Shown here: positions 2,185 to 59,334 of the stretch, one piece after another
Numbering within the stretch: position 1 is the stretch's first letter
Layout of the letters: the number at the start of each line of letters is the position of its first letter
Source: Singulisphaera sp. Ch08
Lineage (GTDB): Bacteria; Planctomycetota; Planctomycetia; Isosphaerales; Isosphaeraceae
Assembly (NCBI RefSeq): GCF_045290345.1
Contig: NZ_CP155447.1
Coordinates: 693,078 to 757,077 of the forward strand
Reading direction: 5' to 3'
Length of the DNA: 64,000 nt
Translations under genes and position numbers: made by a program
Notes under the pieces: generated by a model
What the model was told of the DNA's origin: nothing
The model's database searches: none
The model's input: only the letters and a program-made list of their open reading frames with translations

Positions 2185-5031
2185 TTACTTCGCCCCTTCC
2201 ACGTCCCCTTGGGCGGCCGCGGGGGGAAGCGGATTCCCCTCGGGATCGAGGACGTTGATCACCTTGGCGTAGGGAAGCGACTTGAGCCCCGACTCGATCT
2301 TGGAGCGGTCGCCGACGACCAGGATCACCATGTGCTCGGGGTCGAGGTGAGTCTTGGCGACCCGCGCCACCTCAGCCTTGTCCACGGCGTCGATCTTCGA
2401 CTGGTAGGTCGCAAAGTAATCCGCCGGCAGGTTGTAGAGCACCAGGTCGGCCATCGTCCCCGCCACGCCGAACGTCGTCTCGAACTTGTTCGGGAAGCCC
2501 TTGATGATCCGATCCTTGGCGAAGGTGAGCTCCGTATCAGTGACCGGCCGGGGTCCGGTGATATCCTTCAACTCCTTGAGCAGTTCGACCAGCGCTTCCT
2601 TGGTCACCGCGGTCTGAACCGATCCGCCGGCCTCGAATGGGCCGGGGCCGATTCGGAAGGCGAAGTGCGACCGCGCTCCGTAGCTGTATCCCTTGTCCTC
2701 GCGAAGGTTCAGGTTGATCCGGCTGGAGAACTGGCCACCGAGCACCGCGTTCATGAGGGTCAGCGGGAAGTAGTCGGGGGTTCCTCGCGGCAGGCCAACC
2801 TGCCCGACGGCCAGAACCGACTGCGCGGCGGCCGGCTTATCGACCAGGAAGATCGTCACCGGCTTCTTCGAGGACGAAGGCTCGGGCAAATCCCGCTTGG
2901 GTGCTTCACCGGGCTTCCACTCCTTGATTGCCTTCTCGAGCGAAGCCGTGATCGCGTCCGGCGTCGTATCGCCCACCACGATCAGGCTGGCGTTATTGGG
3001 CAAGAACAAGGATTTATGGAATGCAACAACATCCTCACGCTTGATTGAGTCGATCGTTTTGGGAGTACCGAGATCGGGGCGGCCGTAGGGATGCTCCAGG
3101 CCGTAGAGGAGGCGAGGGAAGACGACGCCGGAGATCCCCTCCGCACTGTCGAGCCGGGCTTTGAGCATGGCCTGACGCTGGACCCGGAGCCGGTTCAATT
3201 CCTTCTCGGGGAATGACGGGTTCAGGAGTACGTCGGTGTAAAGCTCGAGGCCGCGATCCGTGTGCTTGGTCAGGGTGGTCAGCGAGAGGGTGGTCGACTC
3301 GAGTTTGCCACTGGCATCGATCGAGGCGCCGATCTCGGAGAGAGCCCCGGCCAGTTCGAGCGAGTTCCGCGTTTTCGTTCCCTCGGTCAGAAGGTCGGCG
3401 GTCAGCGAAGCGAGCCCTTCCTTCCCGTTGGGAACGAGGGCCTCGCCCCCCTTGACCACCAGGTTGAGGGTCAGGATCGGCAGTTCGTGCCGCTCGGCGA
3501 TCAGCACTTCCAGGCCGTTGGAAAGCGTGCGGCGCGTGACCGGAGGAGGGGTGTACTTGGGGGTCGGCCCCACCTCAGGCATCTTCGAGCGATCGAACTC
3601 GTCCTTGACCTCGGCGATCTTCGGACTCTCCGCCGGCGCCTGCTTCGAGCGATCGACTTCGGCCTCAGCCTTGCGGGGGGTCGGGTCGCCTGGGTTGACG
3701 TCGAGCCGGATCCGGTTGGCGGTGAGGTACTGGTTGGCCACCCGCTTCACATCTTCGGGTGTGACCTTGAAGAGCCGAACCATCTCGGCCTTATAGGCCA
3801 ACGGGTCGCCGAACTCGACGTTGTAGTTATTGAGGTAGTCGGCCTTGCGGCCCGCGGCCTGGAGGCCGACCACGAGCTGGCTCTCCTGGATGTTCTGCGC
3901 CTTGATGACTTCTTCGAGGGTCGGGCCCTCTTTCTTGAGTCGCTCGATCTCGGCGTCGGCAATCTTGACCAGGTTGTCGAGCGACTGGCCGCGCTGGGCG
4001 TAGATCGTGACAGTGAACTCACCGGCCAGGGCACTCGCCGGGTGTCCCGCGTCGACGTGCGCAGCGAGTTGGCGATCGTACATCAAGGCGCGGAAGAGCC
4101 GGTTCTCCTTGTCGATCCCGCCGAGGACCATCGAGAGGACATCAAGAGCCTGCTCGTCGGCGTCACCCCGCTGGCCGGTCGGCCAGACGAGCTCCACGCG
4201 CGGGAGCGAGACCCGGTCCGTCATCTCAATATGTTTGGGTTCAGACAGAACGGGAACGTTCGGCTGAAGCTTGGCGACCTCGGGACCGCGGGGCAGGGGG
4301 CCGAAGTACTTGGCGACCAGCCGCTTGGTTTCGGCCGGGTCGAAGTCGCCCGCGATGCAGAGGCTGGCGTTATTCGGGCTGTAGTAGGTGCGGAAGAAGG
4401 TCGAGACGTCGTCGAGGCTGGCCGCCGAGAGGTCGGCCATCGAGCCGATCACGCTGTGGTGATAGGGATGATCGGGCGGATAGAGGGCCTCGAGCAGGGT
4501 CTCGGCCGTCTGGCCGTAAGGCACGTTATCGTACCGCTGCCGCCGCTCGTTCTTGACCACATCGCGCTGATTGTCGAGCTTCGCCTGTGTCAGGGCCGGC
4601 AGCAGAAAGCCCATGCGGTCGGCTTCGAGCCAGAGTGCCAGCTCGAGGGCATTGCTCGGGACGTTCTCATAGTAGTTCGTCCGGTCGGTGCTGGTGCTCC
4701 CATTGATCTGGGCCCCCACCTTCTCGATCGGCCCGAAGTATTCGCTGTCATGGTTCTTCGACCCCTGGAACATCAGGTGCTCGAACAGGTGGGCGAACCC
4801 GGTCCGCCCCGCCTTCTCATTCTTCGAGCCGACCTTGTACCAGAGATTCACGCCCACGACCGGGGTGGTGTGATCCTCATGGAGGATGACGTCTAAACCG
4901 TTAGGCAGCGTGTACTTATCGACCTTGAGCTGAGGGATCTGAGGCGTGCGGTCGTCACCGTGCGCCGGGGGTCCGGCCGACACCAAAGCGGCCGACGCCG
5001 CGAGCAGGAGAGAAAGGATACCGCGTTTCAT
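2185..5031 (-). CDS. M16 (pitrilysin/insulinase) family zinc metallopeptidase with two tandem M16 modules, secreted.
   Basis: The translation contains the inverted zinc motif HLFEHLMFQGSKN (HxxEH) and a second M16-like half. A signal peptide MKRGILSLLLAASAALVSAG begins at the ATG at 5029-5031, with a GGAG 11 nt upstream. The long plus-strand ORFs 3262..4896 and others are shadow frames. Confidence 0.85.
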   Translation of the reverse strand: MKRGILSLLLAASAALVSAGPPAHGDDRTPQIPQLKVDKYTLPNGLDVILHEDHTTPVVGVNLWYKVGSKNEKAGRTGFAHLFEHLMFQGSKNHDSEYFGPIEKVGAQINGSTSTDRTNYYENVPSNALELALWLEADRMGFLLPALTQAKLDNQRDVVKNERRQRYDNVPYGQTAETLLEALYPPDHPYHHSVIGSMADLSAASLDDVSTFFRTYYSPNNASLCIAGDFDPAETKRLVAKYFGPLPRGPEVAKLQPNVPVLSEPKHIEMTDRVSLPRVELVWPTGQRGDADEQALDVLSMVLGGIDKENRLFRALMYDRQLAAHVDAGHPASALAGEFTVTIYAQRGQSLDNLVKIADAEIERLKKEGPTLEEVIKAQNIQESQLVVGLQAAGRKADYLNNYNVEFGDPLAYKAEMVRLFKVTPEDVKRVANQYLTANRIRLDVNPGDPTPRKAEAEVDRSKQAPAESPKIAEVKDEFDRSKMPEVGPTPKYTPPPVTRRTLSNGLEVLIAERHELPILTLNLVVKGGEALVPNGKEGLASLTADLLTEGTKTRNSLELAGALSEIGASIDASGKLESTTLSLTTLTKHTDRGLELYTDVLLNPSFPEKELNRLRVQRQAMLKARLDSAEGISGVVFPRLLYGLEHPYGRPDLGTPKTIDSIKREDVVAFHKSLFLPNNASLIVVGDTTPDAITASLEKAIKEWKPGEAPKRDLPEPSSSKKPVTIFLVDKPAAAQSVLAVGQVGLPRGTPDYFPLTLMNAVLGGQFSSRINLNLREDKGYSYGARSHFAFRIGPGPFEAGGSVQTAVTKEALVELLKELKDITGPRPVTDTELTFAKDRIIKGFPNKFETTFGVAGTMADLVLYNLPADYFATYQSKIDAVDKAEVARVAKTHLDPEHMVILVVGDRSKIESGLKSLPYAKVINVLDPEGNPLPPAAAQGDVEGAK

Positions 5032-7305: not shown

Positions 7306-7412
7306 GAGGGATTTCCGGCCCGGCCGTGCGAGGGAATTACGGCCGGGCCGGCCGTGCTACTGCAAACATCCCGTGGCGGAAACCGTAAGGATCATCGGTT
7401 CTTTTGCTCTTT
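7306..7412. repeat. Interspersed repeat, family C (~105 bp).
   Basis: The core GAGGGAATTACGGCCGGGCCGGCCGtGCTACTGcAAAc...GGCGGAAACCG.AaGaATCATCgGt.CTTTcGCTC.tTCGCGGATCGTTG is shared with the copies at 15313 and 59153. It contains a GGCCGGGCCGGCC palindrome. It sits between convergent genes. Confidence 0.75.
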
Positions 7413-7474
7413 CGCGGATCGTTGTTTTGGATTCGTTGGCTTCGACCTCGTTCAGCGTGCGGCGGCGGCCGAGG

Positions 7475-10573: not shown

Positions 10574-10615
10574 GCGGATCTCATTTCTAATTCAGTAAGC
10601 AATGGTGCGAAATTC

Positions 10616-10790
10616 GAGTCTGTCACAAGCAAACCGGGCCCTCTGTCCGCCCCGTAGGCCGAAATTCGCGGGAGAAACTCGTTCCCACGCTCGACGTGGG
10701 AATGCCGTCCTGGCCGCTCTGCGGCCCTACCCGCCGGGGAAGACGACGCGGAGCGTGGGAACGAGATCCCGGTATCCTTGCTGCAGTCTC
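10616..10790. repeat. REP-like repeat, family A, long variant.
   Basis: It has the same core as 1709-1910, including the extra GTGGGAATGCCGTCCTGGCCGCTCTGCGGCCCTACCCGCCGG module. Confidence 0.8.
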
Positions 10791-11358: not shown

Positions 11359-11417
11359 TGCCAAGGCTCCCCGTAAGGTTGACATCGAGATCGCCCGGAC
11401 GAAATCCACCTATTCCT

Positions 11418-11531
11418 GAGTCTGTCGCAAGGAAACCGGGCCGTCTGTCTGCCCCGGAGGCCGAAAATTCGCGGGAGAAACTCGTTCCCACGCAGAGCGT
11501 GTGAACGAGATCCCGGTATCCTTGCTCCAGC
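11418..11531. repeat. REP-like repeat, family A, short variant.
   Basis: It has the core GAGTCTGTCGCAAGGAAACCGGGCCGTCTGTCTGCCCCGGAGGCCGAAAATTCGCGGGAGAAACTCGTTCCCACGCAGAGCGTGTGAACGAGATCCCGGTATCCTTGCT. Confidence 0.8.
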
Positions 11532-11695
11532 CCTTATTCCTTCACTTACAGCGATTTACCCTCGCGTCGCTTACATCGTTGTAACCGGGGTCTGTGACCC
11601 CGGGGCGAATGCCAAGACCGGGGTCACAGACCCCAGCGACAAAAGGGTTTCGGTCGCCATGATCCGCGAGCGACCCGATGGTAAACCGCGTTAGG

Positions 11696-11874
11696 TTAGA
11701 GCGGTTTACGATCGCATTGCGCACGGTGGAGGAAAACGGGGACTGGCTCCCGGCCCGCTCCATGCTCGGCTTTTCCGGACGACCTGGCGGCCGGGTGCCT
11801 GTCCCCATTTTCCGCACGTGCTCCTGAGTCTTGAGACCAACCACCGTGCGCAACGCATCCGCAAACCGCTCTAA
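11696..11874. mobile_element. MITE-like element, family B, with ~33 bp terminal inverted repeats.
   Basis: The left end is TAGAGCGGTTTACGATCGCATTGCGCACGGTGG and the right end is CACCGTGCGCAACGCATCCGCAAACCGCTCTAAG, which are reverse complements. A second copy lies at 22877-23130. Confidence 0.7.
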
Positions 11875-14880: not shown

Positions 14881-15312
14881 GTGTTCCTTCTCAGTGGGGA
14901 GACCTTGTGACGGTCAAAGCAACGTTTGCTAGCGGCGAAAGCGGAAGGCCCAGCTAACTCTCTACAAGACACCAGCAATCCACACAATTCACACGTTGCA
15001 AAAGGTGGTTATGACCACGTGCAATCTCTCTTCCAATCCGTCAAAAACACCAGCCGTGTCATACGGCCGAGTCTTCATCGTTCGCCTCCCGATTTCGATT
15101 TCACCTAATGATTTCCTTACTAATGATTCCTGCCAGCTCAACGACTCAACTCCCATTGATTTTTCCACACATTTACACACTCAGTATTCAATCAAGCAGT
15201 CTCAAAAGCTCGCCAAACCAAGGGTGAGCACTTGAAGAGCAAGCTGGGCGGCTCGGCTCCGATCAGTCGTATCGATCCCATCGCTTACCAACACAATCCG
15301 CTGAAGACGCGT

Positions 15313-15415
15313 GCCGACCCCGAGGGAATTACGGCCGGGCCGGCCGGGCTACTGCAAACCAATCCGGTGCGGGAACCGCATGAATCATCGGGTCTTTCGC
15401 TCTTTCGCGGATCGT
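15313..15415. repeat. Interspersed repeat, family C.
   Basis: The sequence is GACCCCGAGGGAATTACGGCCGGGCCGGCCGGGCTACTGCAAACC...TCTTTCGCTCTTTCGCGGATCGTTG. It sits in the divergent intergenic region next to an AT-rich patch. Confidence 0.75.
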
Positions 15416-15843
15416 TGAAAAGGAACCCGTACCGAGCGTAGAGAACGCGAACCATCAAAACGCGATCCAGGTCAGCATGCCACCCGATCCAAACCGGGCT
15501 GGTCTCCACACCCGGGAAAGGCGCCGCGCTGGTCGCGGGTTGGATCGAGGTAGCATACGGCGACGAAGGGTCTTATCACCGTTGATAAATTGAAAATGCC
15601 GCTTAAGAGCGGATTAAACTCTCAAACCAAACTCTCTTTCATGACGGCGCTCGCAAACACTCGATACGTCCCACTCTGCAAGGTCTGGGAAGGTCGGCGT
15701 CGCTTCATCGGACCGTACCTTTCAAGCTCTGAAGACACCCCGATCACAACTTCGCCAATCCTTTGTGTGCTTGACGGAAACCTTGCAGGTGCTTCAATAG
15801 GGCGAATCTCGCTCGATCTTGAGTCCAAGTTCCGAGACGATTC

Positions 15844-21007: not shown

Positions 21008-21221
21008 CCGAATCCTCCGACAAAAAATTGCTCTCCACGCGGCCTTCCCTTGGACCGTTTCCGAGCTCAGCGTCACGAGCCGCTCGGCACTCCGATTTGG
21101 TTGGAATCCTTCGAACGGCTCGGTTTCACCTGGCTCGACGCCGTGACGTGATCGACAACAACAGCCCATCCGGCATCGACGGCTTACATCTTGTACGATT
21201 TTGAATAAGCTTCACCTCATG

Positions 21222-21340
21222 GAGTCTGTCGCAAGGGAACCGGGCCGCCTGTCTGCTCCGGAGGCCGAAATTCGCGGGAGAAACGCGTTCCCACGCAGAG
21301 CGTTGGAACGAGATCCCGGTATCCTTGCTACAATCTCACC
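21222..21340. repeat. REP-like repeat, family A, short variant.
   Basis: The sequence is GAGTCTGTCGCAAGGGAACCGGGCCGCCTGTCTGCTCCGGAGGCCGAAATTCGCGGGAGAAACGCGTTCCCACGCAGAGCGTTGGAACGAGATCCCGGTATCCTTGCTACAATCTC. Confidence 0.8.
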
Positions 21341-21834
21341 TCATGCCGGGAAATCATCGCATGACCAAGGGATTGCGACGTGACCATGAAGGACGGCTTC
21401 TCAGGACCAGGATATTGCTCACCCGATCCGGTCGTTCTATGATGATGACTTGCCTTGGCAAAACGAGTAATGAGCAGGGAAATACCCTGACCACTATTGC
21501 ATAACCACGTTATCTCCTAATCGAATTAAAGAGACCGATGCAGCCGATTCAGGGACGACAGTGTAACTCGCCAGATGTTCATCCCAATCCAATTGCCCAG
21601 CGGCAAGACACTCCGCATTGACAATGTGCCCGGAGCGTTCGACCGGTTGGTCATACCCGGCATCATTGACTACACGATTCGACGATAATCCGAGCGTGAT
21701 GATCGCGATAACGAGGGAAAGCGATGGTTGCGAACCAACCGTCATGAACGCCTCGCAAACGATCAAGGCCCGATGGCTCAAAACCCACTCGCGTTCCTGG
21801 GACTCCAGGAGTGATGGAAACAAATCGGGGACAC

Positions 21835-22773
21835 ATGAGGAACAGCATTCGCTACAAGGATCTCCAACTGGCGACGCTTCGGAGCTTCTGTGAGGTTGCG
21901 ACCCACGGCAATTTCACCGAGGCCAGTCGGCGGCTTCACCTTTCGGCCCCGACCGTCTGGCAGCAGGTGCGATCCTTGGAGCGCAAGCTGCAAGTGACGC
22001 TCGTGCGCCGTCAGGGGCGGACCGTCGTGCTCTCGGCCGAAGGCAAGCTGCTCTATGACTTGGTCCATTCTCATGTAGCCGGCCTGGATTCGCTGGTCCG
22101 ACTGTTCGAAGCCGGCCGAAGCGAATTGCCACAGCAGGTCACAATTGCCGCCACCCCCTATTTCGTCACGTATCATCTCCCTCAGGCGATCCAAGCCTTC
22201 GTCACCCGTTATCCAGCCGCTTGTTTAAATTTTATCATTTGCAGCTTTACCCAGGAGATCTTTCGGTCGGTGGAACGCGGCGAGGCCGACATCGGCATGA
22301 CGGTTCTCGATCACGATGACTCGCTTCCGGCTTCATTGAACTACGAGGAGCTCTTTTCACTCTCGTTGACGCTCCTGACGGTCCCACGGCATCCCCTGGC
22401 GCGAAAGCGAACCCTGACCCCTCTCGACCTGGTCAACTTTCCAATCATCATGCCTCCGACCGGGGGCGTCGATGCCCCCGCGATCGAAAGGCTCCTGCGG
22501 CGGCACAATCTTACCGACAAGATCCAGGTTGTCATGTGCACGAAAAATTTCGACATTATCATACGTTATGTCGGCCTGAACGTCGGAATTGCGCTCTGCC
22601 ACGTCGGCCCGAAGGCCTCAATGTGGATGCAAGGAGTCCATCTTCGTGAATTTGATCCCGCACTGCCTAAACTCCCGGCGGTCCTGGTGACCCGCAAGGG
22701 CGCTCACTCGCCTCCCCAGGTTCAGGAATGCCTCAACACGTTGAGACAGCTTTCCTCGTCGGCCGTGCCCTGA
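21835..22773 (+). CDS. LysR-family transcriptional regulator.
   Basis: The N-terminal HTH reads MRNSIRYKDLQLATLRSFCEVATHGNFTEASRRLHLSAPTVWQQVRSLERKL, followed by an LysR substrate-binding-like region. Confidence 0.85.
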   Translation: MRNSIRYKDLQLATLRSFCEVATHGNFTEASRRLHLSAPTVWQQVRSLERKLQVTLVRRQGRTVVLSAEGKLLYDLVHSHVAGLDSLVRLFEAGRSELPQQVTIAATPYFVTYHLPQAIQAFVTRYPAACLNFIICSFTQEIFRSVERGEADIGMTVLDHDDSLPASLNYEELFSLSLTLLTVPRHPLARKRTLTPLDLVNFPIIMPPTGGVDAPAIERLLRRHNLTDKIQVVMCTKNFDIIIRYVGLNVGIALCHVGPKASMWMQGVHLREFDPALPKLPAVLVTRKGAHSPPQVQECLNTLRQLSSSAVP

Positions 22774-22876
22774 ATTGCCCACGCCCCCCCTCCGACCGGG
22801 GGAGCGAGTTTCGTAAGGCTTCGCCGATCCCGTTTTTCCCTACGTCAACGCGATCGGTAATGGCATCATCATCGGC

Positions 22877-23130
22877 CTAGAGCGGTTTGCGGATGCGTTG
22901 CGCACGGTGGTTGGTCTCAAGACTCAGGAGCACGTGCGGAAACGGGGACTGGCTCCGGAGCGCAGCGGAGGTGCCTGTCCCCCTTTCCGCCGAGGCCGCC
23001 CGTGACGGCCCGGAAAATGGGGACAGGCACCCGGCCGCCAGGTCGTCCGGAAAAGCCGAGCATGGAGCGGGCCGGGAGCCAGTCCCCGTTTTCCTCCACC
23101 GTGCGCAATGCGATCGTAAACTGCTCTAAC
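22877..23130. mobile_element. MITE-like element, family B, copy 2, inserted inside a family-D repeat.
   Basis: Its terminal inverted repeats are CTAGAGCGGTTTGCGGATGCGTTGCGCACGGTGG ... CACCGTGCGCAATGCGATCGTAAACTGCTCTAAC. The internal segment is a palindromic rearrangement of the internal segment of the 11696 copy. Its flanks are contiguous in the uninterrupted D copy at 30541-30760. Confidence 0.7.
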
Positions 23131-23290
23131 CATTCCCGTAGGGTGGGCACGGCCCACCATCTTAAACTTCGCTTCGGCAAGGAGATAGGGATGGTGGGCC
23201 GTGCCCACCCTACGGGAAAAATCGGATTCTGGCCGCTAATCAATCATGAATCATTGATCAATTCATAACGGGTTAGGCGAAGCTTTACCC
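23131..23290. repeat. Family D palindromic repeat, 3' part. The 5' part is at 22825-22876, split by the MITE.
   Basis: It contains CCCGTAGGGTGGGCACGGCCCACCATC ... GATGGTGGGCCGTGCCCACCCTACGGG (perfect ~27 bp arms) and the tail GGCCGCTAATCAATCATGAATCATTGATCAATTCATAACGGGTTAGGCGAAGCTTTACCC. It matches 30541-30760. Confidence 0.75.
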
Positions 23291-23333
23291 TTTTTCTCTG
23301 GTTTCCTCCGTAGCGCATCATGCAACGGGCCAC

Positions 23334-26300
23334 TCACCGCGAGGCGGCCGGAACGCCCGCCGGCTTGAGCCGGGCCCCGTTGATCCAGTCGAGCAGCGTC
23401 TGGTACTCGGGCGAGCTCTTGGCCTCGAACCGGACGCCGCCGGAGTGGGCTTTTTTGGTCGGGTCGTTCTGGGCCTCGGCTTCCTCGGCGGCCTCCCAGG
23501 TTGGTTTGCCGAGGAGGAGGCTGTCGGCCGGGCTCGGGAGGTTGACGACCCGGAGCGCGGCCCGGAAGTTGGCGCGCACCGCCTGCGGTGACCACTTGCC
23601 GTCCTTGCCTGGGGCAACCATTTTGAGGATCGTGTGCGAGCGATGGCAACCGACGCAGCTTTGCCCGTCCTCACCCGCCGCGTTGAAGATCGGCAGGACC
23701 TTGGCCTCGAAGTAGGCCAGGTCGAGCAGATCGGCCGAGGCCCCCGCGCCACTCGATCGGCCGCCTGACTTCAGGAGCGCCGAGGCGATCTCCTTCTGGC
23801 GCTGGTTGTCGGTGCCCGTCAGCTCGCGCAGGCTCGCTTCGATGGCCGGGTTGGCCACCAGCTTCGGGTGCGTCTGAATCACCTCGAGCGCCTTCTCGCG
23901 GACACCGCTGTTCTCATCGACCACCCCGTTGCTGATCACTCCGATCAGTCGGAGGTCGGAGACATCCGCGTTCTTGGGAGAAACCGAGTTGAGCAGGCCG
24001 ATCCGATGCTGGGGCGAAGGGTCTTCCAGGGACTTACGCAACGCGGAGTCGGACACCTTGATCTTCGAGCCGAGTACGAGCCGGATCGCCGACACCCGCG
24101 CATCGACATCGGCATCGGCCAGGGCCTCGGCCACCTGGCTCCGGACCGAGCGGTCCGCCAGCAGTTTTGGGAACGCGGGCAAGGCCTTGAGCGCGGCGGC
24201 TCGGACCGTGGGGGCCTGGTCGTCCAGACGGTCCACCACGGCGTCCGACCGATCCGCCTCGGCCACGGGGCCCAGCCGGCTCAGAATGGCCAGGGCCGCC
24301 GCTTGCGCCTGGGGGGTCTGATTCTTCAACAGATCGTCAAGCAACGCCACCAGTTGAGCATCAGCCTGGCCCGGCTTGACCTTGAGCGGGAACTTCTCCG
24401 CCATCGTGCCGGCCCACTCGCGAACCGAGGTGTCGACATCTCCTTGCCGGGCAGTCACGGCCAGGGCCAGGGCCGGGGCACGATCGTCCCGAAGCGCCAC
24501 CAAGGCCTGAAGCGCCAGGCGGCGAATTGTGGGGTCGGGATCGGCCATCTGGCCGATCAGGGCTGCCGAAAACCGCGATTGGGCCTCGCCGTAGACAAGC
24601 ATCGGCTCCAGGTCGTTGCCGATCCGCCCGCCAAGAACCGGGCGTTCGTGGAACTCGGAGATGGCACGGAGAACCCCCTCGCGCTGGAGGGCATTGCCGT
24701 GGCCCAGGACCGCGACATACTTGTCCCCCAGGCGGTTCGACGTCGCGTGCTGCGCCTCGGTCGCGGTGTCTCGCCGCTCCTGGGTCGCCAGCGAAGGGAC
24801 CCAGTTGGTGTAGAGGTAACGAATATTCTCATCACCGATGATATAGAGAGCTTCAATCAAGTTGCGGCGAACCCAGGGGTGCCTGGGCTCGCTGAGCCTG
24901 GCGATGAGTTGATCCTCGATCCGGTTGCGCAAGGCGGAGTCAGCCTGCCAGTACCACCAGCGCCAGGCCCCTTTGATCGCCTGCAACTGGACCACCGGGT
25001 CGGAGTCATCCAGTCGCTCGAGCAGGGCATCGGCCAGCGAAAGCTCCTGCGAGAGGTCACGGAAGTGGGCCGCGAAGACGCGGGTGGCCCCGCGGCGAGT
25101 CCGGTCGTCGGGTGACCCGAGTGCCTCCTTCAAGGCCGAGACGAACCGGGTCTGTGCGATCGTCTCGCCCGGCTTGCGATTCGCGTTCAGACGATTGCCG
25201 ATCGAGCGGAGCGCTTCGGCCGAAGCGCGTTGCACAGCCTTGCTCTCATCGCCGAGCCGCGCGATCAGACCCGGGATCGCCGAGTCATCGCCGACCCGCC
25301 CCAGCGCCTCGCAAGTCGCGAGCCGGACCAGCGGACGCTCATCGCCCAGCCAAGCGAACAGGGCTTCACGCAGGGCAAGGGGAGGGGACTCCCAGATCTG
25401 CTCGAGGTCCCGGAGCGTGTGTGAAGGCGAGTCGGCCCGAAGGGTCTCGGGCTGAGGGCCGAGCGGGCCGTTCCATCCCTTGGTCCCGCCGGCTCCTGGG
25501 TAAATCCGTGAGAGCGAAAGCAAGGCCCACTGGGTCTCGCGGAACGGGGTCTGAAACTGTTCATAGGGGCTGATGTCGAGCCAGCCGCCGAAGTTCTTCT
25601 GCCTGAGCAAGAGCGCCACGACTCCCTTGCGGACGGCCGGGTGATCGGCGGGCAATCCGGCCAGCGAGAGAGCGTACAGGCTCTCGCCGGTCTGCATCTC
25701 GGTGATCGCATAATTGGGGTCGAACTTCACCGACCAGTGGCCGTTGTCTCGCTGAAGCGCGAGGAGCCGGTCGACGTTCGCCTTGATCTTGTCCGCGAAC
25801 TTCGCGGGATCAACCTGACAGAGCCCGATCGTCTGGGCGGCGAGGTCACGAGTGTTCGCCGGCTCACTGGTGGGAAGGAGCGTCGCGATCAGGTCACGGG
25901 TCTTGGCATAACGAGCGTCCCCCGTTCGGCGAACGAGCTCGTCGAGTTGTCGCCAGCTATCGGTGGCGACCTTGTATCGGCTGACCGGGTTGTTCCCATT
26001 CGACTCGTCAGGAGGTAAGTCCTTGCGGTCGTCGTAATAGAGTTTGAGAAACTCGGCGATGCCCCGATGCGTATTGTCTCGAGGGGGGCCGGCGATCAGA
26101 TTTTCCGAGTCCATCACGATCGTCGAGAGCCGCCCGAGTACGTTCGCGGGAGCGGGGATCATCCGCGCCCAGAGCGCCTCAGGGTGCCCATGGAACGGAA
26201 CCGGATTGTTCGAGAGCCGATCGAGCAGGAACCGGAGCGCAAACGGCTGCTCGATCTTGTAGCCTGAGCGTACCGCCCCCATCGCCGACTGGGTCGTGAA

Positions 26301-27317
26301 GTGGGTCGGGTGGCAGGCGATGCAGGTCGACGTCTCGTGGTGGGCGTTGGCGACTCGGTCCATCGGATGCCCCTTGCGGGGCGTGTTGGCGTGCCAGCTA
26401 TCGCCGGCGAGAAGCTGGAAGTCGAGCGCTGTCTTGACCGCTCTACGTGCCGACTCGGCGACCTTTCCAGGGTCGGCGGCGTCCTTCTGATCGAGGTAGG
26501 GGGGGACGTCGAACAGCTTGGTCCGAAGCCGATAATCGGGCTGGCAGGCGTCGACCATGACGTAGTACGTTCCCCGGGTCAGCATCCGGGTGGTGAATTT
26601 ATTCGCCCCAGGGCGCGGGGGCTTCTCGCGTTGGAGGCTCTGAGGATCGATCCCCGCCGTGTATTCGACCGGCTTCCCATCCTTGATCTGGTAGATCCGC
26701 ACGTCGGGGGGGACGTCTCGATCGATGAAGTCGAGCGCAAAGAAGGCGAGTTTGGGGGTCTCGGACGAATACGTGAAGGTGAACCAGTCCTGCCCGACGG
26801 CATTCTCGGCCTCAGTCGGCTGCTCACCAACCGGGAAATAAGGGCGATCGTCGGCCAGGCCGTGGACCGTCTGACCGAGGACCAAGGGGTTGGCCTGCTC
26901 GGGCCGGTCGTTGGGCTCGGCCTCGAAGCTCGCCCCGTCCTCGGCCGGTTCGCCGAGGTCGGCGACCCGAACTGCGAAGGGGACCGGCCTCGCCTCTGCC
27001 TCGGAAGCCTCGATCGTGATCCGGGCAGACGTCTGCGCCGGCTGGAGAATCGTCCAGACGATATCAGGATCGCCCAGGTGAAGCGTCTTGTTGAGCGTGG
27101 TCTCGCCGAAGGCCACCTTCACCGCAATCGGCGCGGTAGGGGCCAAGCGACCCGGCACTTTCAGCGCGATCGAGACCGAAAGTGTCCGGGGGGTCGGGGA
27201 CGCGGGGATCTCAACCGAGGCCGGACGGCCCGCCTGGATGTCGGCCTCAAGGGTGGGAAGCCCACTGGGATGAGCCCCCAAGACGACCGCGACCCAGCAT
27301 GCGAGGTTCACAAGCAT
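23334..27317 (-). CDS. Giant (1327 aa) secreted multidomain protein with a CxxCH site, a prenyltransferase/terpene-cyclase-like repeat region, a ~10-repeat HEAT (PBS-lyase-like) array and a C-terminal Planctomycete cytochrome-C (PSCyt1) domain.
   Basis: It has a signal-like N-terminus and CIACHPTHF. The repeat region reads VDRLLALQRDNGHWSV...FGGWLD. HEAT-like repeats include LVRLATCEALGRVGDDSAIPGLIARLGDESKAVQRASAEALRSIG. The C-terminus reads FEAKVLPIFNAAGEDGQSCVGCHRSHT...GGVRFEAKSSPEYQTLLDWI. The plus-strand ORFs 23868..25115 and 26301..27392 are shadows. Confidence 0.6.
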   Translation of the reverse strand: MLVNLACWVAVVLGAHPSGLPTLEADIQAGRPASVEIPASPTPRTLSVSIALKVPGRLAPTAPIAVKVAFGETTLNKTLHLGDPDIVWTILQPAQTSARITIEASEAEARPVPFAVRVADLGEPAEDGASFEAEPNDRPEQANPLVLGQTVHGLADDRPYFPVGEQPTEAENAVGQDWFTFTYSSETPKLAFFALDFIDRDVPPDVRIYQIKDGKPVEYTAGIDPQSLQREKPPRPGANKFTTRMLTRGTYYVMVDACQPDYRLRTKLFDVPPYLDQKDAADPGKVAESARRAVKTALDFQLLAGDSWHANTPRKGHPMDRVANAHHETSTCIACHPTHFTTQSAMGAVRSGYKIEQPFALRFLLDRLSNNPVPFHGHPEALWARMIPAPANVLGRLSTIVMDSENLIAGPPRDNTHRGIAEFLKLYYDDRKDLPPDESNGNNPVSRYKVATDSWRQLDELVRRTGDARYAKTRDLIATLLPTSEPANTRDLAAQTIGLCQVDPAKFADKIKANVDRLLALQRDNGHWSVKFDPNYAITEMQTGESLYALSLAGLPADHPAVRKGVVALLLRQKNFGGWLDISPYEQFQTPFRETQWALLSLSRIYPGAGGTKGWNGPLGPQPETLRADSPSHTLRDLEQIWESPPLALREALFAWLGDERPLVRLATCEALGRVGDDSAIPGLIARLGDESKAVQRASAEALRSIGNRLNANRKPGETIAQTRFVSALKEALGSPDDRTRRGATRVFAAHFRDLSQELSLADALLERLDDSDPVVQLQAIKGAWRWWYWQADSALRNRIEDQLIARLSEPRHPWVRRNLIEALYIIGDENIRYLYTNWVPSLATQERRDTATEAQHATSNRLGDKYVAVLGHGNALQREGVLRAISEFHERPVLGGRIGNDLEPMLVYGEAQSRFSAALIGQMADPDPTIRRLALQALVALRDDRAPALALAVTARQGDVDTSVREWAGTMAEKFPLKVKPGQADAQLVALLDDLLKNQTPQAQAAALAILSRLGPVAEADRSDAVVDRLDDQAPTVRAAALKALPAFPKLLADRSVRSQVAEALADADVDARVSAIRLVLGSKIKVSDSALRKSLEDPSPQHRIGLLNSVSPKNADVSDLRLIGVISNGVVDENSGVREKALEVIQTHPKLVANPAIEASLRELTGTDNQRQKEIASALLKSGGRSSGAGASADLLDLAYFEAKVLPIFNAAGEDGQSCVGCHRSHTILKMVAPGKDGKWSPQAVRANFRAALRVVNLPSPADSLLLGKPTWEAAEEAEAQNDPTKKAHSGGVRFEAKSSPEYQTLLDWINGARLKPAGVPAASR

Positions 27318-27439
27318 CGTAGACAGCTCCTGGTTAAATCACGACCCGATTCTATAGAATACGAGATTCTCCTGCTCGACTCAATCGCGTGATTCGTGAT
27401 CGCTGCGTTGAGCTCCTCGACACAGGGGCATCGGGCGGC

Positions 27440-28045
27440 TCAGCACTGGCGAACCTGGTCTTTGAGCTCCTCGATCTGCCGGCTCAACTGGTTGAGCTTT
27501 GCCATGAGCTCGTGGTGGTGGAGATCGACCTGCCTCGGATTCTTGCCCTCGACGGAGATCGAGCCGCCCGGTTCGAGCACACACCGATTGACTTCGCTCA
27601 GGCTGGTGAAACTCTGGCGGTGGAGGATCGTCATCAGTTCGGATTCGGTCACAAGTTCCTTGGCGAGCGCTTCGCGGACGATGCTTCCGTTCTCGATGAG
27701 GACGGTCGGTTCCCCTTGGATCAACTGGTCAAGGCGGCGATGTCCGAAGAGGAAACGAACCACCAGGTAGTTGGCCAGGAGCAGTGCCAACGCACCGATC
27801 AGGCCGCCGGCTACCGAGTTGTCGTTCCCGATAATGGCGTTCTGCACCGTGTTGGAGAGCGAGATCAAGACGACGAAGTCAAACGGGTTAAGTTGCACCA
27901 GTTCACGCTTGCCGAATACGCGGAGGCCGATGACCAGGAAGGCATAAACAATGACAGGGCGGAGCACTTTCTCGGCCAACGAGATCCCCGTCAACCACCA
28001 CATGTTGCGCCAGAGATCTTGCGACCAGAACCAGTGGAATGACAT
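27440..28045 (-). CDS. DUF421 (YetF-like) membrane protein.
   Basis: The translation reads ...LRPVIVYAFLVIGLRVFGKRELVQLNPFDFVVLISLSNTVQNAIIGNDNSVAGGLIGALALLLANYLVVRF..., matching the conserved YetF N-terminal pattern. Confidence 0.75.
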   Translation of the reverse strand: MSFHWFWSQDLWRNMWWLTGISLAEKVLRPVIVYAFLVIGLRVFGKRELVQLNPFDFVVLISLSNTVQNAIIGNDNSVAGGLIGALALLLANYLVVRFLFGHRRLDQLIQGEPTVLIENGSIVREALAKELVTESELMTILHRQSFTSLSEVNRCVLEPGGSISVEGKNPRQVDLHHHELMAKLNQLSRQIEELKDQVRQC

Positions 28046-28348
28046 TGCGAGAGCGCCCCGATCCCGAGAGGGTGAAAACTCGAACGTGGACGCTGACCGG
28101 CAGGGTCGACGCCAGATTGAAAGTACACGCCGGGTCGGTGGCCGTCGAGTTCGCCGCCCTGCTCATCATGAGGATTGTCTCCTCTTCCTCAGCCGCGACC
28201 TGAGAGCTTCACTCGCTTCCTCATTTCCCGTTCCCACACGAATTCTCAAGCGGGGACGATACCCATGAACGGGGACGAGCTATAGAATGTTAATGAGACG
28301 GGCAGCGAGTGCATTGCTTCAGGGGATCACGCCAAGCAGGAGGACATC

Positions 28349-28869
28349 ATGATTCGCTCAATCGGCTGCCTGACATTGTTCGTGCTCGTGGGATCGCCCC
28401 TTTGGGCGGGCGAACTTGACGCCGAGTATGGGGCGAAGTCGCCGAGCCAGCCGCCGGCGGTCACCCTCGCAAGCGTGGCGATGGTTCCCAACCCCGTCGA
28501 CCCGCCGGGAGTGGTCGGAAAGGGAAGTGAACTCGACTCCGAGCGGGCCACGCAGGCCTGGCGGCGTTTCGGTGGATTCGGCGGTTGGGGCCGTGGCTGG
28601 GGCGGCGGTTGGGGCCGTGGCATCGGCTGGGGCGGCGGCTGGGGCCGTGGCATTGGCTGGGCGGCGGCTGGGGCCGTGGCATCGGCTGGGGCGGCGGTTG
28701 GAACCGCATTGGCTGGGGTGGCGGCTGGGGTGGTGGCTGGGGCTGGGGCGGCGGCTGGGGCGGCGGCTGGGGCGGCGGCTGGGGCTACAGCTATGTCCCC
28801 GTGACTTACTCTTACTTGAGTGTCGGCGGTCTCGGATTCGGTGGTGGTTACGGCCTGGGGTGCTGGTAA
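28349..28869 (+). CDS. Secreted Gly-Trp tandem-repeat protein with a -1 frameshift at ~28660 inside a G-tract. The upstream frame is 28349..28804 and the downstream frame ends at 28869.
   Basis: An AGGAGG lies 7 nt upstream of the ATG. The translation starts with the signal peptide MIRSIGCLTLFVLVGSPLWAGE and has ~9 units of WGRGIGWGGG or WGGG. The reading frame of the repeat switches where one unit has GGG instead of GGGG (28659-28661). The downstream frame ends ...GYSYVPVTYSYLSVGGLGFGGGYGLGCW*. Confidence 0.5.
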
Positions 28870-28937
28870 AAGCAAATTCATCGTAAGGCGATTGCGAACT
28901 CAAATCGCCGGCTTGGCCCCCGCGCCGGAGATTTTCG

Positions 28938-30443
28938 ATGCCTTGGAGAGCGATCGCCGGCCTGCTCCTTCTCGTCCCCTTCGGCCAACCGGCGAGGGCG
29001 CAAGCCGACCGACTCGACGCGGGGGTCGCCTCTCCGGGCCAGCGACCGGTCGTGGCGCGAATGGCGGATGCCCAAGCCGTCCGAAATCGGCTTGGGCTCA
29101 CCGCGGAATATGACAGGATCGTTGGCCTCGATTCCGTAAAAGTCGCCGTGCTGGACTACGGCTTCGCCGGCCTCGGCCAAGGTCGTCCCTATCTACCGGC
29201 CAGCGCGGAGGTCGTCGAGCATTACGACCCGGCGTTCGTCCGCCGCTTCGGGCTGGGCGACCCAGACTTCCGCACCCCCTTCGACCCGTTGAACCGACAT
29301 GGCCGGGTCATGGCGCAAGTCATCTGGTCGGTGACCGGCTCGCACCCCAACGGGCCCAAGTTCTATCTCCTCAACGCCAGCGGACCGACCATGCTACGGC
29401 GGGCGGTCCGGTTCGCGATCGAGCACAAGGTGGATCTGATCCTGTTCAGCGGCTCGTTTGAGGGGGGCGGCAACGGTGACGGTCGCGGGCCGATCAACCG
29501 GGTCGTCGCCGAGGCCACCGCGGCAGGGATCCCCTGGATCAACGCCGCGGGCAACTCCGGGCGCAAGGTCTACAATGGGCCCGTACGCGTGCTCAAGGAC
29601 GGCTATCTCCGGCTCCGCGACGGCTCGGACGTGGCCGCCTTGCGGTTCCGCAACCGCGTGGACGAGAACAGGGTCAGCGTCACTCTCACCTGGAACGACT
29701 ACCGCGAGGAGGAGGACGCAGGGACCGACAAGGACCTCGACCTCTACATCGAGGACCCAGCCGGCCGGCCCGTCGGGGCAGGGGAGAAGCGTCAGGTCTC
29801 CGGATCTCAAGTGCCCGGCCCGGACGAGACCCGCAACCCTCGCGAGCGTGTGGTCCTGACCGCCCTCCCGGCCAGTCCCGAGGTCCTCACCGACCCCGAC
29901 TATTGCTACCGGATCCGGATCCGGGCGAAACGAGGCCGGTTCCTCCCGACCGATCGCCTGCGCGTCCTGGTGACCGCGAGCCGCGAAGCCTACATTCCCC
30001 CCGGCGGCGACTCCCCGCGCGAGGCGCTCGAGTTCCTCGACGCCTCGGGCGAAGGCGAGCTCTACCCGCCGGCCGACAACCCGCTCGTGCTGACAGTCGG
30101 TGATTCCGACTTGTCCTCATCCATCGGCCCGACCACCGACCGCCGGATTAAGCCGGACGTCATCCTGGCCGACTCGCGGGCCTTCTTCACCGACGGCGAA
30201 GTCTCGGCCGGCTCCTCGAACGCCGCCGCCTACGTCGCGGGCGTCGTCACCGTTTTGAAAGCCGCCGTGCCCGGCCTGCGTCCCAGCCACCTGCTCCGGA
30301 TCGCCCAACAAGGCCCGGTCGTTCCCTACTCCGCCCTCCGAGGCCGTCCCACCCGCCCTGCGAGCTCTCCCCCGCCCGGATTCCACTACTGGCAGACCCC
30401 GACCCGGGCCAAGCTCATTGATCTCGTGCGGAGGAGCCAATGA
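28938..30443 (+). CDS. Secreted S8 (subtilisin-like) serine peptidase, divergent.
   Basis: It has a signal peptide MPWRAIAGLLLLVPFGQPARAQA. The Asp block is VKVAVLDYGFAG, the His block is NRHGRVMAQVI, the oxyanion block is NAAGNSG, and the Ser block is GSSNAAAYVAGVV. It lies 69 bp downstream of the GW-repeat gene. Confidence 0.7.
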   Translation: MPWRAIAGLLLLVPFGQPARAQADRLDAGVASPGQRPVVARMADAQAVRNRLGLTAEYDRIVGLDSVKVAVLDYGFAGLGQGRPYLPASAEVVEHYDPAFVRRFGLGDPDFRTPFDPLNRHGRVMAQVIWSVTGSHPNGPKFYLLNASGPTMLRRAVRFAIEHKVDLILFSGSFEGGGNGDGRGPINRVVAEATAAGIPWINAAGNSGRKVYNGPVRVLKDGYLRLRDGSDVAALRFRNRVDENRVSVTLTWNDYREEEDAGTDKDLDLYIEDPAGRPVGAGEKRQVSGSQVPGPDETRNPRERVVLTALPASPEVLTDPDYCYRIRIRAKRGRFLPTDRLRVLVTASREAYIPPGGDSPREALEFLDASGEGELYPPADNPLVLTVGDSDLSSSIGPTTDRRIKPDVILADSRAFFTDGEVSAGSSNAAAYVAGVVTVLKAAVPGLRPSHLLRIAQQGPVVPYSALRGRPTRPASSPPPGFHYWQTPTRAKLIDLVRRSQ

Positions 30444-30540
30444 GCAGCCTGGAAAGCCCATGTCGTCAGGCTTGACGCCATGCTCTCCGTCTTGAGGAAC
30501 GAGGTCGAGAAATACCGGAATTAGTAACGCTTCGCCAAAT

Positions 30541-30760
30541 CCGTTTCTCCTACGTCAACGCGATCGGCAATGGCATCATCGTCGACCAAGCAATTCCCGT
30601 AGGGTGGGCACGGCGCACCAATCTAACCTTTGCTTTGCCAAGGAGATAGGGATGGCGACCCGTGTCCACCCGACGAAAAAAAACGGATACTGGCCGCTAA
30701 TCCATCGTAAATCGTTGATCAATCCCTCACGGGTTCGGCGAAGCTTTACTTCAATTCAGC
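30541..30760. repeat. Family D palindromic repeat, uninterrupted copy.
   Basis: The sequence is CCGTTTCTCCTACGTCAACGCGATCGGCAATGGCATCATCGTCGACCAAGCAATTCCCGTAGGGTGGGCACGGCGCACC...GGATGGCGACCCGTGTCCACCCGACG...GGCCGCTAATCCATCGTAAATCGTTGATCAATCCCTCACGGGTTCGGCGAAGCTTTAC. Confidence 0.75.
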
Positions 30761-42153: not shown

Positions 42154-42480
42154 TCATGCCGGCTTGGCGGGCATGCTTCCTTCATCGGTTGGGAGCTTGG
42201 TCTTCACCGCGGCGGTGGGGCTGTGGCCGTTGGCGGCCACTTTTTCGGAGTCGGCGGCGGTGTCGACCATCTTGCCGAAGAAGTCGGGCATCTTGACGCC
42301 GCCGATATTCTCCATGATCTGGAGCACGGGGGGGAGTGTCTTGGCCATATTCTGGAGGAAACCGGCGGTGGCGCCCGTGCCGTTGGAGCCACCGTTCTCC
42401 CAGACGATGACCTTGTCGAACTTGATGTTCGAGATCGCCTGCGAGAGCGTTCGGAAGCGGAATGGTGGCCAGGCACTTAA
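42154..42480 (-). pseudogene. Duplicated 3' fragment of the flotillin gene (C-terminal ~100 codons plus stop region).
   Basis: The DNA at 42165-42475 is near-identical to 44785-45095. It encodes ...AAQAISNIKFDKVIVWENGGSNGTGATAGFLQNMAKTLPPVLQIMENIGGVKMPDFFGKMVDTAADSEKVAANGHSPTA, then a tail AVKTKLPTDEGSMPAKPA* that differs from the intact gene's tail. Confidence 0.75.
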
Positions 42481-44767: not shown

Positions 44768-46465
44768 TCAGGACGGCTTGGCGGGCCGGCTCCCCGCATC
44801 GGCGGCGAACTTGGGTTTGGAGTCGGGGGCCGGGACCGGGGCGCCAGCCCTCGCGGTGGGGCTGTGGCCGTTGGCGGCCACTTTCTCGGAGTCGGCGGCG
44901 GTGTCGACCATCTTGCCGAAGAAGTCGGGCATCTTGACGCCGCCGATATTCTCCATGATCTGGAGCACGGGGGGGAGTGTCTTGGCCATATTCTGGAGGA
45001 AACCGGCGGTGGCGCCCGTGCCGTTGGAGCCACCGTTCTCCCAGACGATGACCTTGTCGAACTTGATGTTCGAGATCGCCTGCGCGGCGGTCTGCGAGAG
45101 CGTGTCGATGTGTTCGAGCATCAGCAGTTGGAAGGCTTCCTGCGAGCCGCCGCAAGCGGAGACGATCTCACGGAGTCCCTCTGCCTTCTTGGCAAGGATC
45201 TCGTAATTGCCACGGGCCTCGGCTTCGAGCTTGGCGAAGATCGCCTTGGCGTCGCCCTCGGCCTCGATCCGCCGGCGCTCGGCCGCGGCCTCGGCTTCGA
45301 CGATCACCTGCGCCTTCTTGGCCTTGGCGACGGCTTCGAGTAGGGCCCGCTGTTCGGCCTCGATCTTCTCGGCCTGGGCCAGCGCGGCCTTGGTCTGGGC
45401 ACGGAAGGCGGCCTCCTCGACGCCGGCATCAGCCTCGCGCCGCTTGGTCTCGCCGATCTGGAACGCCTCGGCCTGCTTGAAGGCGAGGTCGGCATTCGAG
45501 GCGGCGATCTTCGCCTTGGCCTCGTTCTCACCGCTGATCGCCTGGGCGTCCGCTTCGGCGAGTTTGATCCGCATCGCGCGCTCGGCGAGCTTAACGCTGG
45601 CCTGCTGCTCGAATGCGGCCGTCTCAACGCCGATCTTTTCTTCCTTCAGCAACTCGGCGACCTGGACGGCCCGCTCACGCTCGGCCCCCTTGGTCCCGAT
45701 CTCGCGGAGCTTCTCGGCGTTCGCGACCTCGATGGCCTGCAACTGCTTCGCCTTGGCCACGCCGATCGACCCATATTTCTGCTGCTCGGCGACATCGATC
45801 TCGGCCTGATGAATCGCGGTGCTGGCCGCCTTACGGCCGATCGCCTCGATGTACCCCGAGTCGTCGGTCAAGTCGGTGATGTTGACGTTGATCAGCACCA
45901 GCCCGATCTTCCGCAGTTCCAGCTCCAGCGAGTTCTGGATGTTCTCCAGGAACTTCTCACGATCGCGGTTGATCTCGTCGATCGACATCGACGCGATCAC
46001 CTGGCGAAGCTGACCGAAGATCAGGTCGGCCGCCTGGGCGCTGACCTGATCGCGACTCAGGTTCAAGAGCCGGATCGCGGCGTTCTGCATCACCTCGGGC
46101 TCGGTGCCAATGGCGACGGTAAAGACGCTCGGAACATTCACCCGGATATTCTCGACCGAAAGCGCCCCACGCAGCGGGATCTCGATCTGGATCGGCTCCA
46201 GCGCCAGGTAGTCATAGTCCTGGAAAATCGGAAAGACGAGCGTTCCACCGCCGTGAACGCAAGTGGCCGACTTCGCCCCTGTCCCCACGCCCCACTTGAC
46301 CAGCACCTTGTTGGAGGGACAACGCTTGTAGCAACGCAGAGCCGTGGTGACGACCCCGAAGACGGCCACCGCGAACAACGCGGCGCCGACCACCGGCCAC
46401 CAACCTGAGCTATGCGTCTGATTGACCAGATTTAACTCAGCAACGACAAACGAGAGCATAATCAT
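44768..46465 (-). CDS. Flotillin (FloT/YuaG-like SPFH/band-7 protein).
   Basis: It has an N-terminal transmembrane segment (MIMLSFVVAELNLV...GWWPVVGAALFAVAVFGVV), an SPFH block (...LVFPIFQDYDYLALEPIQIEIPLRGALSVENIRVNVPSVFTVAIG...) and long EA-rich coiled coils. The plus-strand ORFs 45207..45809 and 45809..46408 are shadows. Confidence 0.85.
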   Translation of the reverse strand: MIMLSFVVAELNLVNQTHSSGWWPVVGAALFAVAVFGVVTTALRCYKRCPSNKVLVKWGVGTGAKSATCVHGGGTLVFPIFQDYDYLALEPIQIEIPLRGALSVENIRVNVPSVFTVAIGTEPEVMQNAAIRLLNLSRDQVSAQAADLIFGQLRQVIASMSIDEINRDREKFLENIQNSLELELRKIGLVLINVNITDLTDDSGYIEAIGRKAASTAIHQAEIDVAEQQKYGSIGVAKAKQLQAIEVANAEKLREIGTKGAERERAVQVAELLKEEKIGVETAAFEQQASVKLAERAMRIKLAEADAQAISGENEAKAKIAASNADLAFKQAEAFQIGETKRREADAGVEEAAFRAQTKAALAQAEKIEAEQRALLEAVAKAKKAQVIVEAEAAAERRRIEAEGDAKAIFAKLEAEARGNYEILAKKAEGLREIVSACGGSQEAFQLLMLEHIDTLSQTAAQAISNIKFDKVIVWENGGSNGTGATAGFLQNMAKTLPPVLQIMENIGGVKMPDFFGKMVDTAADSEKVAANGHSPTARAGAPVPAPDSKPKFAADAGSRPAKPS

Positions 46466-55169: not shown

Positions 55170-55269
55170 AGACTACCCCGAGCTTTGGCAGGCGGAACTC
55201 GACCAAACCTCATACGTCTGCGGTCCCAAGGTGGAGCAATCCACGCATAAACCGCTGTAAAGTCTGCGC

Positions 55270-59012: not shown

Positions 59013-59152
59013 GCAGACGTTCACGGATTTCCTTATGCTTCTTCTACGATCCGTGACCGAGCGCGAACCTCGATAGATTTCCGGCTCGGTCGAATCCGTC
59101 GTACGGCCGGCCCGGCCGTATCCCCCTCGGTCCAGGGCCATTCCTCGGACTC

Positions 59153-59260: not shown

Positions 59261-59334
59261 TTTTTATTTCGTAAAGCCTCGCTGAAACCGTCAAAAAGTC
59301 ATCATCAACTCGCAAATCGGTTCGCGGCAAGGCT

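Follow-up and report, generated by a model that had tools for sequence, protein, structure and literature searches.

The described systems closest to the repeats analysed here are the IS630/Tc1-mariner insertion sequences, with the small elements derived from them, and the REP/REPIN repeats. IS630 inserts at a CTAG target with duplication of the TA. Some subgroups of the IS5 family also make 2-bp TA duplications, and HUH transposition, as in IS200/IS605, gives no target duplication. REPINs reportedly go back to Bertels and Rainey in 2011. The transposase of ISY100 is described as binding the terminal inverted repeats (TIRs) and as performing excision and integration alone (PMC2170065). The Correia/NEMIS elements are counted among the bacterial MITEs (PMC3733652). 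GTAG-tagged REPs and their RAYT transposases are the subject of Di Nocera et al. 2013 (PMC3733652), where the GTAG REP superfamily is defined by the succession of a GTAG tag and a GC-rich palindrome (PMC3733652).

A 64-kb stretch of DNA (hereafter the window) with a G+C content of 61.7% was analysed. It belongs to the chromosome of Singulisphaera sp. Ch08 (CP155447), a hybrid Nanopore/Illumina assembly (PMC11279305); repeats and transposases go unmentioned in the genome paper (PMC11279305). Analysis of the window revealed a repeat, D, that is split by a smaller element, B. The nest occupies a 560-bp spacer between two convergent genes, one for a LysR-type regulator (21811-22773, plus strand) and the other for a HEAT-repeat protein of 1327 aa that is identical to WP_406697738.1 (23334-27317, minus strand). 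DUF1559/N-methyl proteins, typical of Planctomycetota, are encoded in the window. No transposase was found among the ten neighbouring ORFs using Pfam, no Rfam family in the window at gathering thresholds, and no promoter- or terminator-like sites in a consensus scan of positions 22600-23500. Overall, our analysis suggests, with a probability of roughly 70%, that B is a MITE of the IS630/Tc1-mariner type that inserted into D, a repeat with a REPIN-like core. Within this reading, the nested and TA-duplicating insertion of B in D is highly probable.

Three copies of D were identified in the window. The copy that B splits, D1, lies at 22813-23288 on the plus strand and is colinear with the other two. 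Its left arm (22813-22877, plus strand) begins with the D terminal repeat GTAAGGCTTCGCC and aligns with D2 and D3, and its right part (23129-23288, plus strand) contains a REP doublet and ends in GGCGAAGCTTTAC. D2, uninterrupted and 226 bp long, lies at 30524-30749 on the plus strand and is 85.3% identical to D1; D3, also uninterrupted and 229 bp long, lies at 59271-59499 on the minus strand and is about 82% identical to both D1 and D2. The three copies are thus 82-85% identical to each other. A reading made earlier from the sequence only had placed two D copies at 22825-23290 and 30541-30760; these copies are present, with the limits shifted to those given above, and the third was not cited there. 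In all three copies the limits are GTAAsGCTTCGCC ... GGCGARGCTTTAC, which gives a unit of 227 bp with its own terminal inverted repeats of 13-21 bp.

At the core of D, a widespread GTAG-tagged REP, GTAGGGTGGGCACGGCCCACC, is present twice in inverted orientation. The REP sequence, GTAG-GGTGGGC-ACG-GCCCACC, consists of the GTAG tetranucleotide and then a GC-rich palindrome, as in the superfamily definition. In D1 the two arms are at 23135-23158 (plus strand) and 23193-23216 (minus strand) and are separated by a 34-nt spacer, and in the predicted fold of D2 the two REP arms pair into the hairpin expected of an inverted doublet. In the window this REP was found only inside the three D copies. D had been described from the sequence as a palindromic repeat, a description that is right as far as it goes and incomplete, since D has TIRs of its own and a GTAG-tagged REP doublet as its core.

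Comparison with metagenomes revealed the REP 21-mer GTAGGGTGGGCACGGCCCACC as an exact match in more than 120 contigs among the matches listed, with very different flanks. It often occurs there as inverted doublets or arrays, and 50 of 134 occurrences among the matches listed have an inverted partner within 150 nt. On one metagenome contig from another organism, the D-core REP brackets a gene that matches NCBIfam NF047646 with 112 bits against a cutoff of 80; this family is an equivalog for the REP-associated tyrosine transposase (RAYT). The stretch concerned (654-1354 of Ga0256868_10041893) is a REPtron in which a frameshifted RAYT gene lies between D-core GTAG REPs. The likeness of D to metagenome contigs is confined to D positions ~73-156, and the outer ~70-bp arms and the termini of D were found only in the Ch08 genome. 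This distribution argues that D is a larger unit in which a REPIN-like doublet forms the centre. As judged from its sequence, then, D is a composite 227-bp repeat in which short TIRs (GTAAsGCTTCGCC) enclose a REPIN-like GTAG REP doublet, and a RAYT would now move, or would once have moved, the core. The three diverged copies, together with Logan contigs that end within D, hint that D is itself a mobile unit. The flanks of D contain no convincing target duplication. The ends of D (GTAAsGC...) recall what we take to be IS66-type ends with an 8-bp duplication; with regard to such a duplication the flanks of D match by eye at only 12 of 24 positions, which makes this idea a lead only.

At the point of insertion D1 is interrupted after ...ATCATCGGCC, and the junction reads GGCC-TA-[GAGCGG ... 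CTGCTC]-TA-ACCATTCCC. B in D1 is flanked by a clean TA target-site duplication, with the left copy of the TA at 22878-22879 and the right copy at 23127-23128. Removal of B and one TA gives GGCCTAACCATTCCC, and D1 is then 227 bp long, compared with 226 bp for D2 and 229 bp for D3. At the same point the uninterrupted copies read GGCCTAATAATTCCC in D3 and GACCAAGCAATTCCC in D2, with no length difference; had the TA belonged to the element, with no duplication, excision would have left D 2 bp too short. D3 has an unoccupied CTAA whose TA lies exactly where B sits in D1, a comparison that is paralogous and not orthologous. The target sites of B in the window are CTAA for the long copy and TTAA for the short copy described below. 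A 4-bp duplication does not fit, as the long copy is flanked by CTAG and CTAA and the short copy by TTAG and CTAA. These results bear out the proposal of the sequence-only reading that a MITE, B, lies within D, because D1 is colinear with D2 and D3 save for the insertion. That reading had made the contiguity of the D flanks decisive, and they are contiguous once B and one TA are excised. The alignment of D and B that it proposed for finding a target-site duplication showed TA on both sides and the unoccupied TA in D3.

The long copy of B is a non-coding, TA-flanked MITE of 247 bp at 22880-23126 on the plus strand. It had been placed at 22877-23130 (254 bp), which identified the element correctly and drew its limits 1-2 bp too wide on each side. 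Its left TIR, GAGCGGTTTGCGGATGCGTTGCGCACGGTGG (22880-22910, plus strand), has no mismatch to the TIR pattern, and its right TIR, GAGCAGTTTACGATCGCATTGCGCACGGTGG on the minus strand (23096-23126), has one mismatch and an nhmmer E-value of 1e-7. The TIRs of B are 31-33 nt long (33 nt including the TA) and about 82-85% complementary; the earlier figure of ~33 bp agrees with 33 nt including the TA at 82% complementarity. Four matches to the 31-nt TIR pattern were found in the window, compared with 0.00 expected from shuffled sequence; they are the two ends at 22880-23126 and two at 11699-11871. When all six frames were compared with 5.8 billion proteins, no real protein family was found, the only protein match being an ORF of Singulisphaera rosea that extends into a B-type copy. 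B thus has the size, the TIRs and the absence of coding capacity of a MITE. Between the TIRs, four copies of a ~20-nt motif form palindromic modules at 22944-23087 in the order X, Y', Y, X': module X (GGGGACTGGCTCC) at 22944-22956, module Y' at 22970-22982, module Y (GGGGACAGGCACC) at 23019-23031 and module X' at 23075-23087. The ~20-nt motif takes the forms X = GGAAAACGGGGACTGGCTCC and Y = GGAAAATGGGGACAGGCACC, which appear nowhere in the window except inside B. A single strand of B is predicted to fold into one long hairpin with -91.7 kcal/mol (z = -10.6).

Besides two copies of B that are nearly identical, the 64-kb window contains a single diverged relative and a solo TIR. A second copy of B had been noted at 11696-11874 and is present at 11697-11873 (minus strand), inverted relative to the long copy; it comprises 173 bp plus a TA on each side and is without one X-Y' module of 74 bp. 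Apart from this single 74-bp indel the two copies are identical at 176 of 177 positions (99.4%). The indel lies between directly repeated CGGAAA(n)GGGGAC motifs, and the two-module form also occurs in Singulisphaera rosea, so the short copy is most simply taken to be a deletion derivative. Next to the short copy, with a gap of 3 bp, lies the diverged element B' (147 bp, 11547-11693), which has the ends TACAGCGATTTACCC... and ...GGTAAACCGCGTTA and a palindromic core, GGGGTCTGTGACCCC. Two convergent hits of the nhmmer TIR profile were obtained in B', at 11550-11574 (plus strand, E = 0.29) and at 11665-11689 (minus strand, E = 0.044), each of them weak alone. Judging from these features, B' is a putative member of the same TIR superfamily and older than B. 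A solo, partnerless TIR-like sequence was found at 55228-55259 (reverse complement TACAGCGGTTTATGCGTGGATTGCTCC) and may be a remnant of another family member.

The copies of B are identical at 176 of 177 positions and the copies of D at 82-85%, which indicates that B arrived recently in an old repeat and excludes B as an ancestral part of D. The mobility of B claimed in the sequence-only reading is upheld by the insertion into a pre-existing D, by the identity among B copies (99.4%) compared with that among D copies and by the occurrence of the TIR family elsewhere. We infer that B is still mobile. In the proposed mechanism, a DDE transposase supplied in trans would bind the conserved ~30-bp TIRs of B, excise the element and integrate it at 5'-YTAR-3' with duplication of the central TA. 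In one such event B would have entered D1, by then an old repeat, at the CTAA of its left arm, in the spacer between the LysR and HEAT-repeat genes.

Beyond the window, the 30-bp TIR of B, TAGAGCGGTTTACGnTCGGnTTGCGCACGG, also bounds elements of 94-349 bp with unrelated, mostly palindromic cores. A search of one-genome-per-species representatives with a relaxed TIR pattern (TAGAGCGG-N12-TTGCRCACGG) identified 47 loci, about 28 of them in assemblies of Isosphaeraceae, Singulisphaera and other Planctomycetota. The remaining loci are scattered over taxa at roughly chance level, on a rough estimate. The strict B TIR pattern gave no matches in the genome and metagenome contig collections, in which the host genome is absent. 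At the planctomycete loci the TIRs pair up and are conserved and the cores differ between elements. Related genomes have 4-9 TIR loci each, and near-identical copies are present at different loci of one genome (L012/L017/L039 and L020/L022/L024). All ends examined are flanked by TA, as expected of an NTAN target with a TA duplication. Immediately outside the terminal TA, 42 of 46 ends have a pyrimidine (C in 30, T in 12), against 40% before TA in general, and this bias indicates YTAR as the target. At 3469-3623 of locus L039, from the Isosphaeraceae MAG KM4347-34, two 127-bp MITEs lie in tandem with a single common TA (CCGCTC-TA-GAGCGG), which independently supports TA as the duplicated target. 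The cores of these L039 MITEs are GTAG REP doublets (GTAGGGTCCGCTGTGCGGACC), so that a TIR scaffold and a REPIN core are combined, as in D.

In Singulisphaera rosea (GCA_054877945.1), a B-type element at 1836-2090 of locus L003 is 79.5% identical to B over 239 nt and keeps the order X..Y'..Y..X'. About 90 N-terminal residues of the 'FAD-dependent oxidoreductase' P0001 are translated from this B-type MITE (1824-2090), and this N-terminal extension is probably due to a mis-called start codon. Many MAG contigs end exactly in a B-family TIR, and short-read Logan contigs of strain Ch08 end inside D. TIR matches at contig ends indicate that these repeats break short-read assemblies. No description of the B TIR family, of the REP string or of MITEs from Isosphaeraceae or Singulisphaera was found in the literature searched, and the B family appears to be undescribed.

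A search for the autonomous element, that is, a transposase between matching TIRs, found none in the window, the 47 genome loci, plasmids or viral contigs. A transposase with TIRs matching those of B had been set as a target by the sequence-only reading, and none turned up in any of these places. Viral contigs gave zero matches to the B TIR. PLSDB plasmids returned nothing relevant, whether the query was the entire D/B composite or a concatenation of eight TIR variants; the only match to the TIR variants, on a Cryobacterium plasmid, was rejected as a chance match. A fuzzy TIR match 1.1 kb from the MITE at locus L032 was likewise attributed to chance, as it lies inside a membrane-protein gene. 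The only long element with B-type TIRs, of 1329 bp at locus L041, was considered as an autonomous partner and rejected because it carries an unrelated IS110-family gene inserted into the MITE.

The evidence on the enzyme class of B consists of the TA duplication and the YTAR bias, and by analogy these make an IS630-type enzyme somewhat more probable than its alternatives taken together. It is rather unlikely that another DDE family, such as the PIF/Harbinger-like IS427 or ISL2 subgroups of IS5, mobilised B, in which case the insertion itself would be unchanged. The partner transposase was not found in the window or the fetched loci, which leaves the family unfixed, and the TIRs beginning GAG... 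presumably resemble IS5-family ends, a point that we counted in favour of an IS5-type enzyme. Where the flanks are C and G, a 4-bp duplication, CTAG, is an alternative reading of the junction. However, neither window copy agrees with the 4-bp reading, nor do the 12 ends at which the outer base is T; the 2-bp TA reading fits every end examined. It is much less probable that B is itself a REPIN-like element, moved as single-stranded DNA by an HUH tyrosine transposase of the RAYT or TIRYT type that would recognise the imperfect internal hairpins (X/Y' motifs) of B, the TA being incidental. The fold of B into one long hairpin is in keeping with this, as are the constant pairing of X with Y', in which identical T-T mismatches recur across several species, and the fit of the Y motif GGGGACAG to the GGGGWSAS motif of the TIRs flanking TIRYT genes (PMC3733652). 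Nevertheless, the outer 30-bp TIR is conserved and the cores are swapped for unrelated palindromes, which marks the outer TIR as the functional end; furthermore, the TA is duplicated at B and two tandem elements have one common TA.

The least probable explanation, to which we give hardly any weight, is that D1 with B represents an ancestral long form from which D2 and D3 lost B precisely, or that the nest is an assembly artefact at repeats. Recombination between the TA copies could in principle delete B precisely, and repeats confound assembly, as seen in the short-read Logan assemblies of Ch08 that break inside D. Against an ancestral long form, the copy of B at 11697-11873 lies outside D, B is also present in other genomes that have no D, and copies of B are 99.4% identical compared with 82-85% for copies of D. 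Against an artefact, a false join would not give exact TA-flanked junctions together with colinear D flanks, and the chromosome is a hybrid long-read assembly. The preferred reading remains the insertion of B, as an IS630/Tc1-mariner-type MITE, into a pre-existing D.

The sequence-only reading had further claimed that B targets other repeats, and this is not established: two insertions are visible, with p ~0.05 at n=2. One of the two lies inside D and the other 3 bp from B'. In the window, 12 of 53 intergenic YTAR sites (~23%) lie in or within 3 bp of the listed repeats, and against this background two insertions out of two near repeats give the p-value stated. Passive accumulation in permissive intergenic DNA explains the clustering equally well. 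A single nested insertion is an ordinary and expected event in a repeat-rich genome.

In Singulisphaera sp. GP187 (FSRB01000001.1, locus L041, 6639-7967), a B-type MITE is interrupted within its Y motif (GGGGACAG^GCACCC) by an IS110-family insertion sequence, whose 387-aa ORF matches PF01548 and PF02371. This locus is a second nested insertion and not the source of the B transposase, and it suggests that the IS110-family element uses the MITE motif as a specific target. A bolder reading, which we consider unlikely, is that Isosphaeraceae contain hybrid elements in which one DDE-type TIR scaffold (TAGAGCGG...TTGCGCACGG, with TA duplication) carries interchangeable palindromic cores of the REP/REPIN type. 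If this were true, D would be built alike on a different TIR scaffold, and GTAG REPs of the RAYT kind would be among the cores. The same small vehicles would then be shared and reshuffled by two unrelated transposition systems, DDE cut-and-paste and HUH single-strand, and palindromic repeats would be preferred landing pads. Such landing pads would explain B in D, B beside B', the tandem MITEs of L039 and the IS110-family element in the MITE of L041.

An orthologous empty site was sought through homologues of the HEAT-repeat protein with 83-91% identity, flanks included. Nucleotide homology between these loci and the window covers 23333-30471, and homology with the relatives stops at the stop codon beside D1 and ~50 bp before D2. 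No orthologous empty site was obtained from GP187 or the other relatives, as synteny stops at that stop codon. D, B and the REP sequence were not found at the HEAT loci of GP187 and the other relatives, where other genes lie beyond the ends of homology. This fits the presence of D and B in lineage-specific DNA at synteny breaks. The syntenic block in GP187 (locus L171, corresponding to 23333-30471) has D1 near one end and D2 near the other, each within ~50 bp, and D1 and D2 are in direct orientation relative to each other. The D copies may mark rearrangement breakpoints, or the block ends may coincide with them by chance.

Other repeats were also observed in the window. A family of ~110 bp (CGAGGGAATTACGGCCGGGCCGGCC...) is present at 7329-7433, 15306-15426 and 59148-59268; the last of these copies stops 3 bp short of D3, so that repeats abut there too. 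A family with GTTCCCACGC/GCGTGGGAAC palindromes is present at 1702-1905, 10609-10786, 11411-11530 and 21215-21362, and one of its copies precedes B' by 17 bp and the short copy of B by 167 bp. A perfect direct repeat of 232 nt occurs at 42212-42443 and 44853-45084, 2641 bp apart, and between its copies are a triplicated segment of 129 nt and a Gp49-like (DUF891) gene. At 28553-28810 a tandem repeat of the GGCTGGGGC type encodes a Gly/Trp-rich stretch.

The insertion of B in D is a clean and datable example of MITE activity in a planctomycete genome that is among the largest in its family. The B TIR signature can be used to count the family across Isosphaeraceae. B-type MITEs affect annotation, as in the Singulisphaera rosea oxidoreductase with its MITE-encoded N-terminal extension, and both the B-family TIRs and D affect assembly, because contigs end in them. 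If the combination of a TIR scaffold with a REPIN core holds genome-wide, it bears on the origin and interaction of MITEs and REPINs.

Comparison with known systems revealed likenesses and differences for both partners of the nest. The core of D resembles REP/REPIN repeats in that GTAG with a GC-rich palindrome (GTAGGGTGGGCACGGCCCACC) is present twice, in inverted orientation and with 34 nt between the copies; unlike these repeats, the D unit continues for ~70 bp past either end of the doublet and is bounded by TIRs of its own. Insertion sequences that target REPs (IS110/IS1111 family) likewise give nested mobile DNA, but B is not of that family, and its association with repeats is statistically unestablished (n=2). 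With IS630/Tc1-mariner elements such as IS630 and ISY100, B has in common the TA duplication, a CTAG-like (YTAR) target and TIRs of ~30 bp. It differs from them in that no IS630-family transposase with B-matching TIRs was found and in that the B family swaps cores between subfamilies unusually freely while the TIR stays constant. The Correia/NEMIS elements of Neisseria are, like B, small TA-flanked MITEs (~100-160 bp, with TIRs of ~26 bp); they are abundant in intergenic DNA and, like B, have no known partner transposase in their host. The Correia TIR begins TATAGTGGATTAA, which we take to resemble loosely the TAGAGCGGTTTAC of B and the TATAGCGGATCAC of the Singulisphaera rosea element. However, the two groups come from different phyla and are unalignable beyond the first ~12 nt, and the B-type elements have long GC-rich nested palindromes. 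By analogy, the behaviour of B would match that of IS630-derived bacterial MITEs such as Correia/NEMIS and RUP. Overall, B appears to be an IS630/Tc1-mariner-type MITE, an otherwise known kind of element, with a TIR family that itself appears to be new.
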